DNA from: a plasmid
Strand: one strand, 5' to 3'
Assembly: GCF_053078305.1 (NCBI RefSeq)
Contig: NZ_CP166876.1
Length of the DNA: 6,795 bases
Below, piece by piece: positions 1,490 to 6,795 of the stretch (positions are counted from its first letter, which is position 1; the number at the start of each line of letters is the position of its first letter). The notes beneath the pieces are model-generated. The model was given only the letters and a program-made list of their open reading frames with translations. It was not told the DNA's origin and searched no databases. Position numbers and translations under genes: made by a program.

Positions 1490-1545
1490 ATCACGAAGTG
1501 CGCACTTATACAATCTCCACTTCGTTTCGATTGTGTGCGCCCTGC
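1490..1545 (+). other. Candidate origin of transfer (oriT) with MOBQ-type nick region
   Basis: It lies in the intergenic region between the divergent mobC-like and mobA genes. It contains a perfect 12-bp palindrome 'aagtgcgcactt' (1496-1507), an inverted repeat 'acgaagtg' (1493-1500) / 'cacttcg' (1518-1524), and 'gtgcgccct' (1535-1543), which matches the RSF1010/R1162 nick region (TAAGTGCG/CCCT). The inferred nick is between 1539 and 1540. Confidence 0.5.
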
Positions 1546-1584
1546 GGGGCTGAAAGAAAACGGCAAAAAGGCATTACGGCAGAA

Positions 1585-3804
1585 ATGGCGATTTATCATC
1601 TCAGCATGAAAATCATTTCGCGAAAAAACGGCTACAGTGCCGTTGCTTCTGCTGCCTACCGTTCCGGCTCTGTCATACCCGATGACCGTACCGGATTAAC
1701 CCACGATTACACCCGTAAACGCGGCGTTGATGATGCGGTCATTCTCACCCCTGCGAATGCACCGTCCTGGTGTGGTGACCGTTCCGTTCTCTGGAATGCG
1801 GTCGAGAAAGCCGAACAGCGCCGGAACTCCCAGCTGGCAAGGGAGATTGAACTCGCCATTCCCCGTGAGATTTCCCGCGAGGCCGCACGGGAGACCGTTC
1901 TCGCTTTTGTCCGGGAAAACTTTGTCAGTCGGGGCATGATTGCCGATGTGGCGTTCCATCACATGGACCGGACCAATCCCCATGCGCACATCATGCTGAC
2001 CACGAGAGCTGTCGGGGAAACGGGATTCGCAGGAAAGGTCAGGGACTGGAACGACCGGGCACTCGCCGAGACGTGGCGCGCATCATGGGCTGACCATGCG
2101 AATAGAGCGCTTGCGAACGCCGGCTACCAGGAAGAGATAGACCATCGTTCATACGAGCGTCAGGGACTGGAGAAAGCGCCGGGCCTTCACCTCGGAAAGG
2201 CTGCCTGTGCGATGGAAAAACGGGGAATGGAAACAGAACGCGGTGAGCAGAACCGTCTGATTAACAGCCTTAACCTGGAAATACAGGTTTCCCGCACGCA
2301 GCTTGCTCTCAGGACGGTTCAGGAAGCGCAGCGTAAGCGGGAACTCAGCGATGCTGCACGTCGTGCAGCGGAAGCCCTTAACCTGACCATTCCCGCTGCG
2401 AATGCCTCAGCGGATACCCTGCGGGAATTCATTGCCACGCTGCCGCAGGAATGCGGGAACGCGTGGGAGATGACCCCGGAGTTCCTGGCGATGAGCGGGA
2501 AGGTGAACGACATCGAACGTGAGGGGAATGCGCTGCTGAAAGAGCAGGCCATTCTCGAAAAGGAGATGACCGGACTCAAAAAAGCACGCCCTGTCGCGTC
2601 CCTTCTGTCAGAGATTCCCCTGATGACATGGGCTGAACCGGAATACCGCAAAAGACAACTCCGTTTCTGGAAACTCGGGAAACAGATTGAATCTCTTCGC
2701 CGCACCTACAGGGCCGTGAAAGAACGGGACATTCCCGCCCGTCGTCAGGCCTTTGAAACGCAGTGGAATACGTGGATTGCGCCGGGAATGGCAGAGCTGA
2801 AAGAAAAACTGTCAGCACGGGAAGCGGAGCGGCGCAGGGAGGAAGCCGAAGCGGAAGCGCGCCGGAAGGAACAGGAGCATGAGGCGCGGCTGAAACGTCA
2901 TGATAACCACCGTCTGAGCCGTGAAACGGCATTAGTCGGGGTTATTACGGAGCTGGGGCGTGCCAGAGAGCCGGGAACGGGCAGGATAACCCGCTACATG
3001 ATGCTGAGTAACAGGGCCGGAGAATTCACGGTATGGGGTGATGAGCTGGCGCATTACCCCCGGAGTGTTCATGACCCGGTGAATGTTTATCTGTCGCCTG
3101 GCGGGGCTGTGATGGTCACGGATATACACGCAGGGCGGCCTGAATCTCATGAGACAATGGCGCGGCCTGAGCGTGTGAGAATGTATTCCGGTGCGACGGT
3201 CCGGCATGTACTGGAACAGATGCGCCAGGGGTGGCCCTCTTACGGTTTTCCGGCGCTGCCGCATCACTGGCCGGATAATTTTTATTTCAGCAACGACCGC
3301 AGGCCCGTAGCCTCTCCGCTACCGTCAGCGCACCGGGTGGATATCACCGCTGATGCGGCACCGGAACAACTCATGCCTGTTGTATTTTCGAGAGAGGGAA
3401 ACAGCAGGACGCTGAATCTGTTGTTGTGCAAAGGGCCGGAGGAAATGCTTGTCGGGTTTGTTCGCCGGGAAGGAGGGTTTTGCCCCGTTCTTGTGCTTCC
3501 GTCGCCGGATTACAGTCATCTGATGGTCAGCACCATCACGGAGAACGGGGTATGCCTGGCAGGTTACGGAGAAGCTATAAACCATGATGAGGATACTCCG
3601 TACCCACCGGAACCGCACCTGATGCAGTTCCGGCTCAAAGGCCATCATGACAGGCTTTTGGCTGCTGTCCACAAACCGGAAGAGATGCCGGATTATCTCT
3701 TCCGTCAACTCGGTTTTAATCAGACCTGGCATGAGTGGAAGCGGGACGAACAGCACAGGCAACAACAACGCCGCCCCGGGCACTTCCGGGGCATGAGTAT
3801 GTGA
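1585..3804 (+). CDS. mobA: Mobilisation relaxase, MobA/MobL family (MOBQ-like), with long C-terminal extension
   Basis: The N-terminus MAIYHLSMKIISRKNGYSAVASAAYRSG is the conserved MobA/MobL start, with a tyrosine at residue 25 (codon 1657-1659), the same position as the catalytic Tyr25 of RSF1010 MobA. A histidine-triad motif HHMDRTNPHAHIM sits around 1957-1995. The start is set at the in-frame ATG at 1585; the six-frame ORF begins at 1498 but that upstream stretch overlaps the oriT and lacks the family N-terminus. About 440 residues follow the relaxase domain. Confidence 0.88.
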   Translation: MAIYHLSMKIISRKNGYSAVASAAYRSGSVIPDDRTGLTHDYTRKRGVDDAVILTPANAPSWCGDRSVLWNAVEKAEQRRNSQLAREIELAIPREISREAARETVLAFVRENFVSRGMIADVAFHHMDRTNPHAHIMLTTRAVGETGFAGKVRDWNDRALAETWRASWADHANRALANAGYQEEIDHRSYERQGLEKAPGLHLGKAACAMEKRGMETERGEQNRLINSLNLEIQVSRTQLALRTVQEAQRKRELSDAARRAAEALNLTIPAANASADTLREFIATLPQECGNAWEMTPEFLAMSGKVNDIEREGNALLKEQAILEKEMTGLKKARPVASLLSEIPLMTWAEPEYRKRQLRFWKLGKQIESLRRTYRAVKERDIPARRQAFETQWNTWIAPGMAELKEKLSAREAERRREEAEAEARRKEQEHEARLKRHDNHRLSRETALVGVITELGRAREPGTGRITRYMMLSNRAGEFTVWGDELAHYPRSVHDPVNVYLSPGGAVMVTDIHAGRPESHETMARPERVRMYSGATVRHVLEQMRQGWPSYGFPALPHHWPDNFYFSNDRRPVASPLPSAHRVDITADAAPEQLMPVVFSREGNSRTLNLLLCKGPEEMLVGFVRREGGFCPVLVLPSPDYSHLMVSTITENGVCLAGYGEAINHDEDTPYPPEPHLMQFRLKGHHDRLLAAVHKPEEMPDYLFRQLGFNQTWHEWKRDEQHRQQQRRPGHFRGMSM

Positions 3805-4036: not shown

Positions 4037-5707
4037 ATGAGCGGTGGCGATGGACGCGGCCATAACACGGGCGCGCATAGCACAAGTGGTAACATTAATG
4101 GTGGCCCGACCGGGCTTGGTGTAGGTGGTGGTGCTTCTGATGGCTCCGGATGGAGTTCGGAAAATAACCCGTGGGGTGGTGGTTCCGGTAGCGGCATTCA
4201 CTGGGGTGGTGGTTCCGGTCATGGTAATGGCGGGGGGAATGGTAATTCCGGTGGTGGTTCGGGAACAGGCGGTAATCTGTCAGCAGTAGCTGCGCCAGTG
4301 GCATTTGGTTTTCCGGCACTTTCCACTCCAGGAGCTGGCGGTCTGGCGGTCAGTATTTCAGCGGGAGCATTATCGGCAGCTATTGCTGATATTATGGCTG
4401 CCCTGAAAGGACCGTTTAAATTTGGTCTTTGGGGGGTGGCTTTATATGGTGTATTGCCATCACAAATAGCGAAAGATGACCCCAATATGATGTCAAAGAT
4501 TGTGACGTCATTACCCGCAGATGATATTACTGAATCACCTGTCAGTTCATTACCTCTCGATAAGGCAACAGTAAACGTAAATGTTCGTGTTGTTGATGAT
4601 GTAAAAGACGAACGACAGAATATTTCGGTTGTTTCAGGTGTTCCGATGAGTGTTCCGGTGGTTGATGCAAAACCTACCGAACGTCCAGGTGTTTTTACGG
4701 CATCAATTCCAGGTGCACCTGTTCTGAATATTTCAGTTAATAACAGTACGCCAGCAGTACAGACATTAAGCCCAGGTGTTACAAATAATACTGATAAGGA
4801 TGTTCGCCCGGCAGGATTTACTCAGGGGGGTAATACCAGGGATGCAGTTATTCGATTCCCGAAGGACAGCGGTCATAATGCCGTATATGTTTCAGTGAGT
4901 GATGTTCTTAGCCCTGACCAGGTAAAACAACGTCAGGATGAAGAAAATCGCCGTCAGCAGGAATGGGATGCTACGCATCCGGTTGAAGCGGCTGAGCGAA
5001 ATTATGAACGCGCGCGTGCAGAGCTGAATCAGGCAAATGAAGATGTTGCCAGAAATCAGGAGCGACAGGCTAAAGCTGTTCAGGTTTATAATTCGCGTAA
5101 AAGCGAACTTGATGCAGCGAATAAAACTCTTGCTGATGCAATAGCTGAAATAAAACAATTTGAACGATTTGCACATGACCCAATGGCTGGCGGTCACAGA
5201 ATGTGGCAAATGGCCGGGCTTAAAGCTCAGCGGGCGCAGACGGATGTAAATAATAAGCAGGCTGCATTTGATGCTGCTGCAAAAGAGAAGGCAGATGCTG
5301 ATGCTGCATTAAGTACTGCGATGGAAAGCAGGAAGAAGAAAGAGGATAATAAAAGAGATGCTGAAGGCAAACTAAATGATGAGTTAGCAAAAAATAAAGG
5401 AAAGATACCAGGTCTAAAAATAGATCAGAAAATTAGGGGACAAATGCCAGAAAGAGGATGGACAGAGGATGATATCAAAAATACCGTATCTAACGGTGCA
5501 ACTGGTACATCTTTTGATAAGCGTAGTCCGAAGAAAACACCTCCAGACTATTTAGGTCGAAATGATCCAGCAACAGTGTATGGTTCTCCTGGTAAATATG
5601 TTGTTGTCAATGATCGTACTGGTGAGGTTACTCAGATTAGTGATAAGACAGATCCGGGTTGGGTGGACGATTCGAGAATTCAATGGGGAAATAAAAATGA
5701 CCAATAA
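4037..5707 (+). CDS. cea: E-group colicin (BtuB/Tol-dependent); C-terminal cytotoxic domain most consistent with E5-type anticodon tRNase
   Basis: 556-aa ORF with an AGAGGG ribosome-binding site upstream. The glycine-rich N-terminal translocation domain carries the TolB box DGSGW at residues 35-39 (nt 4139-4153), as in colicins E2/E3/E9. The central region is the long coiled-coil receptor-binding domain typical of E colicins. The C-terminal ~105 residues (KIPGLKIDQKIRGQMPERGW...WGNKNDQ) have no HNH motif and no histidine, which argues against the E2/E7/E8/E9 DNases; I do not recognise it as the E3 rRNase either, and it fits my recollection of the histidine-free E5 tRNase domain. It is preceded by the SOS operator and followed by immunity and lysis genes. 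Confidence 0.93.
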   Translation: MSGGDGRGHNTGAHSTSGNINGGPTGLGVGGGASDGSGWSSENNPWGGGSGSGIHWGGGSGHGNGGGNGNSGGGSGTGGNLSAVAAPVAFGFPALSTPGAGGLAVSISAGALSAAIADIMAALKGPFKFGLWGVALYGVLPSQIAKDDPNMMSKIVTSLPADDITESPVSSLPLDKATVNVNVRVVDDVKDERQNISVVSGVPMSVPVVDAKPTERPGVFTASIPGAPVLNISVNNSTPAVQTLSPGVTNNTDKDVRPAGFTQGGNTRDAVIRFPKDSGHNAVYVSVSDVLSPDQVKQRQDEENRRQQEWDATHPVEAAERNYERARAELNQANEDVARNQERQAKAVQVYNSRKSELDAANKTLADAIAEIKQFERFAHDPMAGGHRMWQMAGLKAQRAQTDVNNKQAAFDAAAKEKADADAALSTAMESRKKKEDNKRDAEGKLNDELAKNKGKIPGLKIDQKIRGQMPERGWTEDDIKNTVSNGATGTSFDKRSPKKTPPDYLGRNDPATVYGSPGKYVVVNDRTGEVTQISDKTDPGWVDDSRIQWGNKNDQ

Positions 5708-6026
5708 ATTATTTGAACATACGGTGTTATATGATAGTGGTGATGCCTTTTTTGAATTAAAAGGAAATGCTTCTATGAAGTTATCACCAAAAGCTGCAAT
5801 AGAAGTTTGTAATGAAGCAGCGAAAAAAGGCTTATGGATTTTGGGCATTGATGGTGGGCATTGGCTGAATCCTGGATTCAGGATAGATAGTTCAGCATCA
5901 TGGACATATGATATGCCGGAGGAATACAAATCAAAAATCCCTGAAAATAATAGATTGGCTATTGAAAATATTAAAGATGATATTGAGAATGGATACACTG
6001 CTTTCATTATCACGTTAAAGATGTAA
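5697..6026 (+). CDS. Colicin immunity protein (cognate inhibitor of the C-terminal nuclease domain)
   Basis: 109-aa ORF (MTNKLFEHTVLYDSGDAFFELKGN...) whose ATG at 5697 overlaps the colicin stop codon (5705-5707), the typical translationally coupled position of nuclease-colicin immunity genes. The six-frame ORF begins at 5562, but that extension lies wholly inside the colicin reading frame and is rejected. The gene is AT-rich like the cytotoxic domain. Confidence 0.85.
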   Translation: MTNKLFEHTVLYDSGDAFFELKGNASMKLSPKAAIEVCNEAAKKGLWILGIDGGHWLNPGFRIDSSASWTYDMPEEYKSKIPENNRLAIENIKDDIENGYTAFIITLKM

Positions 6027-6123: not shown

Positions 6124-6267
6124 ATGAAAAAAATAACATGGATTATTTTATTGCTTCTTGCAGCCATTATTCTTGCTGCATGTCAGGCAAACTATATCCG
6201 CGATGTTCAGGGCGGGACTGTATCCCCGTCATCCTCAGCTGAACTGACCGGATTAGCAACGCAGTAA
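6124..6267 (+). CDS. Colicin lysis / release lipoprotein (bacteriocin release protein)
   Basis: Translation by hand gives the 47-aa protein [47 protein letters not shown], with a lipoprotein signal peptide and lipobox LAAC. It is nearly identical to the E-group colicin lysis proteins as I recall them. It is absent from the ORF track because it is short. A ribosome-binding site 'aaggaa' lies upstream. Confidence 0.9.
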
Positions 6268-6294
6268 CCCGAAATCCTCTTTGACAAGAACAAA

Positions 6295-6327
6295 GCGTGT
6301 CAGGCTGATTCTGACGCGCTTTTTTTT
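6295..6327 (+). terminator. Rho-independent terminator of the colicin operon
   Basis: A 9-bp stem 'gcgtgtcag' (6295-6303) pairs with 'ctgacgcgc' (6311-6319), with one G-U pair and a 7-nt loop, and is followed by a run of 8 T (6320-6327). It lies 28 bp after the lysis gene stop. Confidence 0.8.
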
Positions 6328-6463
6328 GAAGTGTCACAAAAATTCCATGTGGGAGATGGGATCTAAAATCCCCGTGCAGAACTTTCCATCCAGGGGGAGA
6401 AAACTTGTCGTTTTGAGCCGTTCGGTGTTCAGAACGCACGAAACCGATCGTGCATCGCTTTCG

Positions 6464-6477
6464 TGCATAGTTATGCA
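6464..6477. promoter_or_regulatory. ARG-box-like palindrome (candidate ArgR accessory site of the cer-like locus)
   Basis: Palindrome 'tgcatagttatgca' resembles the ARG box half-sites (TGAAT/ATTCA with a symmetric A-to-C change) and is centred about 120 bp upstream of the XerCD core, close to the spacing in ColE1 cer. A direct repeat 'tcgtgcat' (6448-6455 and 6461-6468) flanks it. Confidence 0.35.
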
Positions 6478-6578
6478 ACGCGCTAAAAACGATTCTGACG
6501 CATTTTTTATGTTTACCCTGGTGTTTCCTTGTCTTTTTGTTTTTTTTGCGTCAGAAAGCGATTGAGGGTGTTTTAAGG

Positions 6579-6606
6579 GGTGCGTACAACGGGAGTTATG
6601 GTAAAT
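6579..6606 (+). other. XerC/XerD site-specific recombination core (cer-like multimer resolution site)
   Basis: The sequence 'ggtgcgtacaa cgggag ttatggtaaat' has a XerC arm identical to ColE1 cer (GGTGCGTACAA), a 6-bp central region (cer has 8 bp) and a XerD arm TTATGGTAAAT identical to cer. About 180 bp of upstream accessory sequence (about 6400-6578) includes the ARG-box-like palindrome. Confidence 0.8.
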
Positions 6607-6619
6607 GGATCGGGTTTTG

Positions 6620-6795
6620 GGGAATAATCGACAGGGTTTGCCGTTGGGTGTAGTGTAAGCGACTGAAAAACAAACGCCCCGTAAATCGTGCTCTCACCGC
6701 CAAGATTGATCACGAAATTACAGGGCGCCGGGTTCCGCGTCTCCCGATGGGAAAGCGCGGTTAGTTAAACTGTGTACCGAGAGGAATCGTAACAC
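6620..6795 (+). promoter_or_regulatory. Presumed rep leader / copy-number control region (rep promoter, antisense-RNA target), continuing into rep at position 1 if the molecule is circular
   Basis: A ribosome-binding site 'gagagg' (6778-6783) sits about 12 nt before the window end, positioned for the rep ATG at 1 across the circular junction. An imperfect stem-loop 'ccgcgtctccc gat gggaaagcgcgg' is at about 6757-6780. A candidate sigma70 promoter has -35 'tcgaca' (6628-6633) and -10 'tagtgt' (6651-6656). ColE2-type replicons control Rep translation with an antisense RNA against this leader; the exact RNA ends cannot be set from sequence. Confidence 0.35.

Follow-up and report, generated by a model that had tools for sequence, protein, structure and literature searches.

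A probable cer-family XerCD multimer-resolution site with a 6-bp central region on a ColE2-type colicin plasmid

The stretch of DNA analysed here (the window, 6,795 nucleotides) is a complete circular ColE2-type colicin plasmid, in a rotated copy that starts exactly at the rep ATG. The E. coli plasmid pO111-110512_4 (NZ_AP019765.1, 6795 bp) matches the window over its full length (99.2% identity), and many colicin plasmids of the ColE2/E3/E5/E9 type match it at 94-98%. When the RefSeq annotation of NZ_AP019765.1 is shifted into window numbering, the gene set consists of a ColE2-type replication initiator (Rep, 1-915), a MobQ relaxase (within 1498-3804; NCBIfam NF041496, scoring 262 bits where the cutoff is 200), a tRNase-domain colicin (4037-5707), a small gene downstream of the colicin (5697-6026), a lysis gene (6124-6267) and one hypothetical protein. 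There is no recombinase gene among the annotated genes of this 6795-bp plasmid, i.e., the carrier is a small multicopy ColE2-type plasmid without a recombinase of its own. The lysis gene is followed by a strong terminator-like hairpin (6292-6322), as located by a promoter and terminator scan.

A candidate Xer recombination site lies in the non-coding stretch that has the terminator of the lysis gene on one side and rep on the other, in a region where the RefSeq annotation places no gene. Two open reading frames that reach into this stretch (6281-6565 on the plus strand and 6167-6478 on the minus strand) were rejected as genes, being unannotated in RefSeq and, in the left part, unconserved between plasmids. 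Because the window begins at the rep ATG of a circular plasmid, the sequence that follows the XerD arm (6607-6795) is the leader of rep and the antisense-RNA control region of the ColE2 replicon, and it is conserved across the family of sites described below. The stretch also contains a direct repeat with 16/18 identity (6307-6324, GATTCTGACGCGCTTTTT; 6491-6508, GATTCTGACGCATTTTTT), the first copy of which is formed by the descending arm of the lysis-gene terminator together with its T-run and the second of which lies inside the accessory sequence; this repeat could be due to chance or to a small duplication.

The core of the site occupies 28 bp of the plus strand (6579-6606) and divides into an XerC-binding arm, GGTGCGTACAA (6579-6589), a central, strand-exchange region of 6 bp, CGGGAG (6590-6595), and an XerD-binding arm, TTATGGTAAAT (6596-6606). 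It thus has the expected layout of an 11-bp XerC arm, a centre of 6-8 bp and an 11-bp XerD arm, the inner ends of the arms being palindromic. The XerC arm is identical to those of ColE1 cer and pColE3-CA38, and the XerD arm to those of cer, parB, ColA and NTP16. No other position in the window matched the core even with three mismatches allowed, nor did any of 200 shuffled sequences (0/200). The central region was delimited by sequence comparison with cer and by the literature parse of ColE3: In ColE1 cer (NC_001371, 3909-3938), the same two arms flank an 8-bp centre, TTAAGGGA, and the identical ColE3 site has been parsed with a 6-bp centre (PMC11724359 Suppl. 1). The comparison with NC_001371 and the core scan bear out the initial annotation of this DNA, which had described arms identical to those of ColE1 cer around a centre of 6 rather than 8 bp. 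An 8-bp parse, obtained by shifting the XerC arm, was rejected, in that the arm must end in ...ACAA to mirror the TTAT... of its partner and the literature parse is 6 bp. The CGGGAG centre is common to pColE3-CA38, pUTI89, pRS218 and plasmids of the Col156 type.

Adjoining the XerC arm is an accessory sequence of ~181 bp (6398-6578, plus strand), the presumed binding region of ArgR and PepA. Its limits come from an alignment of 12 ColE2-type sites on varied backbones, which include colicin plasmids, Col156-type plasmids of 3.7-5.2 kb, IncF plasmids of 114-128 kb and contigs recovered in a genome scan. Across these 12 sites, homology sets in abruptly at ~6398 (GAGAAAACTTG...), 181 bp upstream of the XerC arm, and the flanks further left are unrelated; a left edge previously placed at 6400 agrees with this conservation boundary, and the complete unit comprises 6398-6606. 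Although identity within the 181 bp drops to about 85%, the 12 sites do not differ by a single indel. The sharp left boundary and the lack of indels, in 12 members residing on different backbones, indicate that selection acts on the 181-bp unit as a whole. In the same family, no variation occurs in the XerD arm, variation in the XerC arm is confined to its outer positions 3-4 (GGTG, GGTA or GGGG), and the central region reads CGGGAG, CAGGAG or GAGGAG. The accessory block further aligns with those of ColE1 cer, CloDF13 parB and ColE3, and the homologous sequence found beside the XerC arm (181 bp) has the length described for the accessory sequences of cer and mwr (~180 bp; PMC2699498).

Inside the accessory sequence is a single putative ArgR-binding palindrome, the ARG box TGCATAGTTATGCA (6464-6477, without assigned strand), which is the only match in the window to the pattern TGMATNNNNATKCA, as compared to an average of 0.06 in shuffled sequences. 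Its columns align one-for-one with the boxes of ColE1 (TGCATAGGTATTCA) and CloDF13 (TGCATAGGCATGCA), and when scored against WNTGAATWWWWATTCANW, which we take to be the ARG-box consensus, it attains 11/16 versus 12/16 for ColE1. The box is unchanged in 11 of the 12 members of the ColE2-type family (ColE3 reads TGAAT in place of the TGCAT present here), and the homologous ColE3 element has been marked as a potential ArgR site (PMC11724359 Suppl. 1). The uniqueness of the match and its alignment with known boxes uphold the initial assignment of an ARG-box-like palindrome to these positions, and what had been called roughly the expected distance from the core turns out to be exact: Measured from the centre of the box, the XerC arm is 108 bp away and the XerD arm 125 bp, values that are also those of pColE3-CA38, ColA and CloDF13. 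This single box stands at a fixed distance from the core, the corresponding distances being 107/125 in NTP16, 106/125 in ColE1 and 107/126 in ColK. A 13-bp imperfect palindrome (6436-6466; GCACGAAACCGAT ... ATCGCTTTCGTGC) adjoins the ARG box on the left and extends into its edge; the family shows hardly any variation in the right arm of this palindrome, and the left arm varies without compensation.

To place the 6-bp centre among related sites, we scanned species-representative genomes for the ARG-box pattern at 103-133 bp from TTATGGTAAAT, which returned at least 120 loci. Among the matches listed, there were 74 unique credible sites, 47 having a centre of 6 bp, 19 of 7 bp and 8 of 8 bp. Much the same picture emerges from a published list of unique enterobacterial xrs, in which 13 entries are 30 bp and 27 are 29 bp, the other entries shown being 28 bp. 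Six base pairs is the commonest central-region length of plasmid Xer sites, and the 8 bp of ColE1 are the minority form. The implication that a 6-bp centre is something unusual, which accompanied the first description of this locus, is therefore contradicted both by these 47 of 74 unique sites (among the matches listed) and by most entries of the published list.

The same survey bears on the placement of the ARG box. Among the matches listed, 59 of the 74 unique sites have their box 125 bp from the XerD arm, which makes this the modal distance. Considering both the listed matches and the named plasmids, the distance from the centre of the box to the XerD arm holds at ~125 bp across central-region lengths: Among the matches listed, sites with 6-bp centres are distributed as 40 at 125, 6 at 124 and 1 at 123 bp, those with 7-bp centres are all at 125 bp (19/19), and those with 8-bp centres are all at 126 bp (8/8), ColE1 itself being at 125 bp. 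The distance to the XerC arm compensates by shrinking, from 108 to 107 to 106-107 bp for centres of 6, 7 and 8 bp, respectively. Because the ARG-XerD distance is constant while the length of the centre varies, these patterns suggest that the accessory complex may be phased to the XerD side or to the point of exchange; each size class may, however, represent one clade and hence few independent events.

Sites of this kind are abundant. A 40-nt core segment matched 941 plasmid records at ≥95%, and the 241-bp site was matched in 854 of the 5,426 complete E. coli genomes, where 1058 of the 1060 places were on plasmids. Sites that are cer-like and have arms of the enterobacterial type also occur on short contigs of assemblies labelled Streptomyces, Cutibacterium, Streptococcus, Microbacterium, Corynebacterium and Arthrobacter and on those of various MAGs; these most likely represent contaminating small enterobacterial plasmids or vector DNA and not true residents.

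Taken as a whole, the feature is very probably a cer-family XerCD multimer-resolution site of a ColE2/ColE3-type colicin plasmid, equipped with an ArgR-type accessory sequence. The cer-like identity originally proposed is sustained by alignment with cer, ckr (of ColK), parB, ColA and NTP16 and by the literature entry for ColE3. The site is in fact already known and catalogued, and a near-identical sister site has already been assayed in mutant hosts. In Supplement 1 of Fournes et al. (Nucleic Acids Res 2025; PMC11724359 Suppl. 1), the identical 28-bp core appears as ColE3 under the heading 'xrs previously characterized', and the accessory sequence of ColE3, its ArgR site included, is printed among the previously characterized accessory sequences. 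For the cer-like site in this plasmid group, Garcillan-Barcia et al. cite Hiraga et al. 1994 (PMC6856555), and ColE2-like plasmids frequently carry resolution sites of the XerCD type (PMC2831885).

Could the conserved block instead be a decayed relic, or be maintained as part of the rep control region and not as a recombination site? It does sit immediately upstream of the rep leader, with conservation that runs on rightward, and there are ArgR-type accessory sequences beside inactive xrs, e.g., in the Yersinia pPCP family. But both arms are perfect matches to those of functional cer, the unit is homologous to sites of ColE1-type plasmids whose replication systems are unrelated, and the sister site on pRS218 is active, all of which leaves this explanation with next to no probability. 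Judging from the sequence and from its assayed relatives, the site almost certainly functions in dimer resolution.

A second function that the region might have is suggested by ColE1, in which cer encodes the checkpoint RNA Rcd from the promoter Pcer, with 15 bp between its hexamers (PMC5935869). We infer that ColE1 Pcer is TTGCAT-15 bp-TAAAAT and overlaps the ARG box, an assignment that fits the stated spacer and the direction of transcription given in PMC2831885. A similar RNA, transcribed from a Pcer-like promoter in the interval between the ARG box and the XerC arm, could be encoded here, since the region is homologous to the Rcd-encoding segment of cer. It also contains a perfect 10-bp inverted repeat within the accessory sequence, whose arms, TTCTGACGCA (6493-6502) and TGCGTCAGAA (6547-6556), neither with an assigned strand, pair with each other across 44 bp; an analogous long-range repeat forms the stem of the Rcd hairpin in ColE1. 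This repeat is conserved in the 12-site family and includes one co-varying pair (6498/6551), which is A-T in 6 sites, G-C in 3 and A-C in 3; on the bottom strand, the A-C combination would be a G.U pair.

The promoter and the fold, however, both argue against an Rcd-type RNA. At the positions inferred for Pcer, the hexamers are degenerate: The window has GTGCAT-15 bp-TAAAAA, in which TAAAAA (6484-6489, plus strand) is, by alignment, homologous to the inferred ColE1 -10 hexamer TAAAAT, and pColE3-CA38 has TGAAAA at -10, such that neither retains the final T. The top strand of the segment folds weakly (-14.8 kcal/mol, z = -0.3) into a 10-bp stem that closes a U-rich loop of 44 nt, whereas the ColE1 segment forms a long hairpin (-38 kcal/mol, z = -4.4); for the bottom strand of the window segment, z is -3.3 as against -0.3 for the top strand. 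A consensus promoter scan found no promoter in 6400-6606, but it is not discriminating, since it misses ColE1 Pcer as well. Across 87 diverse sites, RNAalifold returned no consensus structure for either strand, and the pairing of 6493-6502 with 6547-6556 is not conserved column by column outside the ColE2 subfamily, for which reason a family-wide RNA stem was dropped, with pairing at fixed columns limited to that subfamily. An Rfam scan of the window gave nothing at E≤1, but because Rfam has no Rcd model (as established by a control scan of ColE1 cer), its silence is uninformative on this point. With degenerate hexamers at the presumed Pcer positions and a fold that is weak relative to that of ColE1, the site lacks the combination of Pcer and a structured RNA of ~70 nt that marks a strict cer, and it probably does not encode an Rcd RNA like that of ColE1.

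Direct information on behaviour is available for a sister site. Fournes et al. (PMC11724359) cloned the xrs of pRS218 (CP007150, position 19971, ArgR-type, core GGTACGTACAACGGGAGTTATGGTAAAT) in two directly repeated copies and scored recombination between them. Along with ColE1 cer, pIGRW12 and pSC101 psi, the pRS218 site recombined in wild-type (+) and ftsK (+) hosts and failed to do so in xerC hosts (-); in the pepA host, cer and pIGRW12 were inactive (-), whereas pRS218 and psi were intermediate (+/-) (PMC11724359). The pRS218 region is colinear with 6398-6606 and gapless, with 181/209 identical positions (87%), the differences amounting to one base of the XerC arm and 27 of the 181 accessory positions. 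Because the two are this similar, Xer dependence and independence of FtsK can reasonably be extended, by analogy, to the site in the window. The residual activity that the pRS218 site retains without PepA likewise suggests that accessory dependence here may be weaker than at cer. And because Fournes et al. tested the sister site, the reporter assay in mutant hosts that the initial annotation had urged has essentially been done already. In the literature examined, we found no report on ArgR dependence for any site of the CGGGAG family.

The likely sequence of events can be laid out along the known anatomy of ArgR/PepA-assisted XerCD resolution, as summarised in PMC11724359, PMC5357621 and PMC2699498. 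XerC and XerD of the host would bind the two 11-bp arms at 6579-6606, while ArgR, on the single ARG box (6464-6477), and PepA, around it, would occupy the ~181-bp accessory sequence (6398-6578). In a dimer, the two directly repeated accessory sequences would interwrap, and this synapse would license exchange with XerC acting first, the first strands being exchanged by XerC within the 6-bp central region without a contribution from FtsK. Binding of ArgR, the interwrapped synapse and XerC-first exchange are all inferred for this plasmid. The arrangement would act as a topological filter that admits only intramolecular exchange, such that dimers are resolved to monomers; many segregating plasmid units would result, and with them the stable inheritance of a multicopy plasmid that has no partition system. 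As to the spacing itself, Blakely and Sherratt, in 1996, reportedly found 6 bp to improve XerCD binding, an idea with which the residual activity of the pRS218 site without PepA agrees.

Since the core joins the XerC arm of cer to a 6-bp spacing, one might ask whether it needs a filter at all. Summers, in 1989, and Blakely and Sherratt, in 1996, reportedly relieved the need for accessory factors with just this combination, in the cer/parB 'type II hybrid'. If the natural site were similarly unconstrained, the core would recombine without accessory factors, both inter- and intramolecularly and possibly with activation by FtsK, as in dif or the hybrid. The intermediate activity of the pRS218 site without PepA, the restriction of the known FtsK pathway to 28-bp xrs (PMC11724359), and the presence of the same site in large IncF plasmids, embedded there next to a ColE2-type rep remnant, all speak for such behaviour. 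Yet from backbone to backbone, the 181-bp block and its ARG box show strict conservation in both sequence and length, which is not expected if the block were dispensable. Moreover, recombination at the pRS218 site is normal when FtsK is missing and reduced in the pepA host, and other ArgR-type sites with 6-bp centres are either fully dependent on PepA (pIGRW12) or cer-like in mechanism (mwr). Because both flanks of the core are of the ColE2 type in pUTI89 and pRS218, the core is not a cointegrate junction in either. We therefore view an unconstrained site as improbable.

In a related reading, the site would depend only loosely on ArgR and PepA and recombine between molecules at a low level, which would make it the equivalent in nature of the laboratory-made 'type II hybrid'. 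Because an XerC arm of consensus, cer-like quality (GGTG...) is paired with 6-bp spacing, the site may behave in this way, although we consider it unlikely. If true, loose dependence could help to explain the spread of the module of ColE2-type rep and cer among small plasmids and into IncF plasmids.

A different question is how far the exchange proceeds once it has begun. At psi, both recombinases cleave, and at the 8-bp cer the reaction halts at the junction (PMC5357621). With a 6-bp spacer, as at psi and dif, XerC and then XerD could exchange both strand pairs to give complete products with no stall at a Holliday junction, and the pRS218 site further resembles psi in being intermediate (+/-) in the pepA host. 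However, mwr has a 6-bp centre and an ArgR-type accessory sequence and nevertheless stops at the Holliday junction as cer does (PMC2699498), indicating that spacer length alone is not decisive for exchange of the psi or dif kind. Psi-like chemistry is thus possible but somewhat doubtful. The original suggestion that this site may differ from classical cer is supported in part: A difference in accessory dependence gains some backing from the published intermediate activity of the sister site on pRS218 in the pepA host, where cer has none, and a difference in strand exchange expected from the 6-bp spacing by itself is undercut by the cer-like stop of mwr.

For a cer-family site with an ArgR-type accessory sequence, which we prefer, the biological role is textbook plasmid biology: By converting dimers to monomers, the site secures the stable inheritance of a multicopy colicin plasmid that lacks a partition system. 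The interest that remains is quantitative, i.e., how far a 6-bp spacer and a strong XerC arm relax the dependence on accessory factors. The +/- phenotype of pRS218 in the pepA host hints at such relaxed dependence, which could bear on the shuffling of plasmid modules by Xer recombination. One natural mosaic has been recorded: As printed, p1303_5 combines a ColE3/NTP16-like accessory sequence with an 8-bp core of the ColE1 type (PMC11724359 Suppl. 1), which is consistent with accessory sequences and cores having been shuffled by exchange between cer-like sites. Also, large IncF virulence plasmids, among them pUTI89 (18464-21503) and pRS218, have this cer-like site immediately upstream of a rep gene of the ColE2 type or its remnant (PLSDB rep_cluster_2131), and it appears that a small ColE2-type module was captured by these plasmids.

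Among the named Xer sites, that of pColE3-CA38 has an identical core, and the whole site aligns without indels at 189 of 209 bp, with the ARG box in the same position and the site likewise situated between the lysis gene and rep; it differs by 20 accessory substitutions, its ARG box having TGAAT for the TGCAT of the window. The sites of pRS218 and pUTI89 share the XerD arm, the CGGGAG centre and a colinear accessory sequence of the ArgR type, and differ in the XerC arm, GGTACGTACAA, which is one base off (GGTA instead of GGTG); the pRS218 site is also located on an IncF plasmid of 114 kb, next to the remnant of a ColE2-type rep, and not on a small colicin plasmid as here.

Relative to ColE1 cer, both arms are identical, the accessory sequences are homologues with an identity of about 50%, and a single ARG box stands 125 bp from the XerD arm. 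However, the 6-bp centre sets the site apart from a strict ColE1-type cer, which has the 8-bp centre TTAAGGGA, and the ARG box is 108 bp and not 106 bp from the XerC arm. In addition, ColE1 cer produces Rcd from Pcer, with a strong hairpin (z = -4.4) of a kind not present in the window site, and is fully dependent on PepA.

CloDF13 parB, ColA and pJHCMW1 mwr have 6-bp centres too, and parB and ColA share the XerD arm and the placement of the ARG box (108/125 bp). For mwr, both the core and the dependence on ArgR and PepA are taken from the literature (PMC11724359 Suppl. 1; PMC2699498), a core scan of NC_003486 1-700 having returned no match to the mwr core. These three sites differ from that of the window in their diverged XerC arms (GGTACCGATAA, GGTGCCGACAA and GGTGCACGCAA, respectively) and their centres (GGGATG, CGGATG and CAGATG), and their accessory sequences belong to another subfamily.

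Finally, pSC101 psi and chromosomal dif have 28-bp cores with 6-bp spacing, as here, but psi is served by an accessory sequence of the ArcA type, and dif has none and requires FtsK. The site in the window departs from dif in having an ArgR-type block and a sister that is active in an ftsK mutant, and it departs from psi in that its accessory sequence aligns with those of ArgR-type sites and bears an ARG box at the relevant position.
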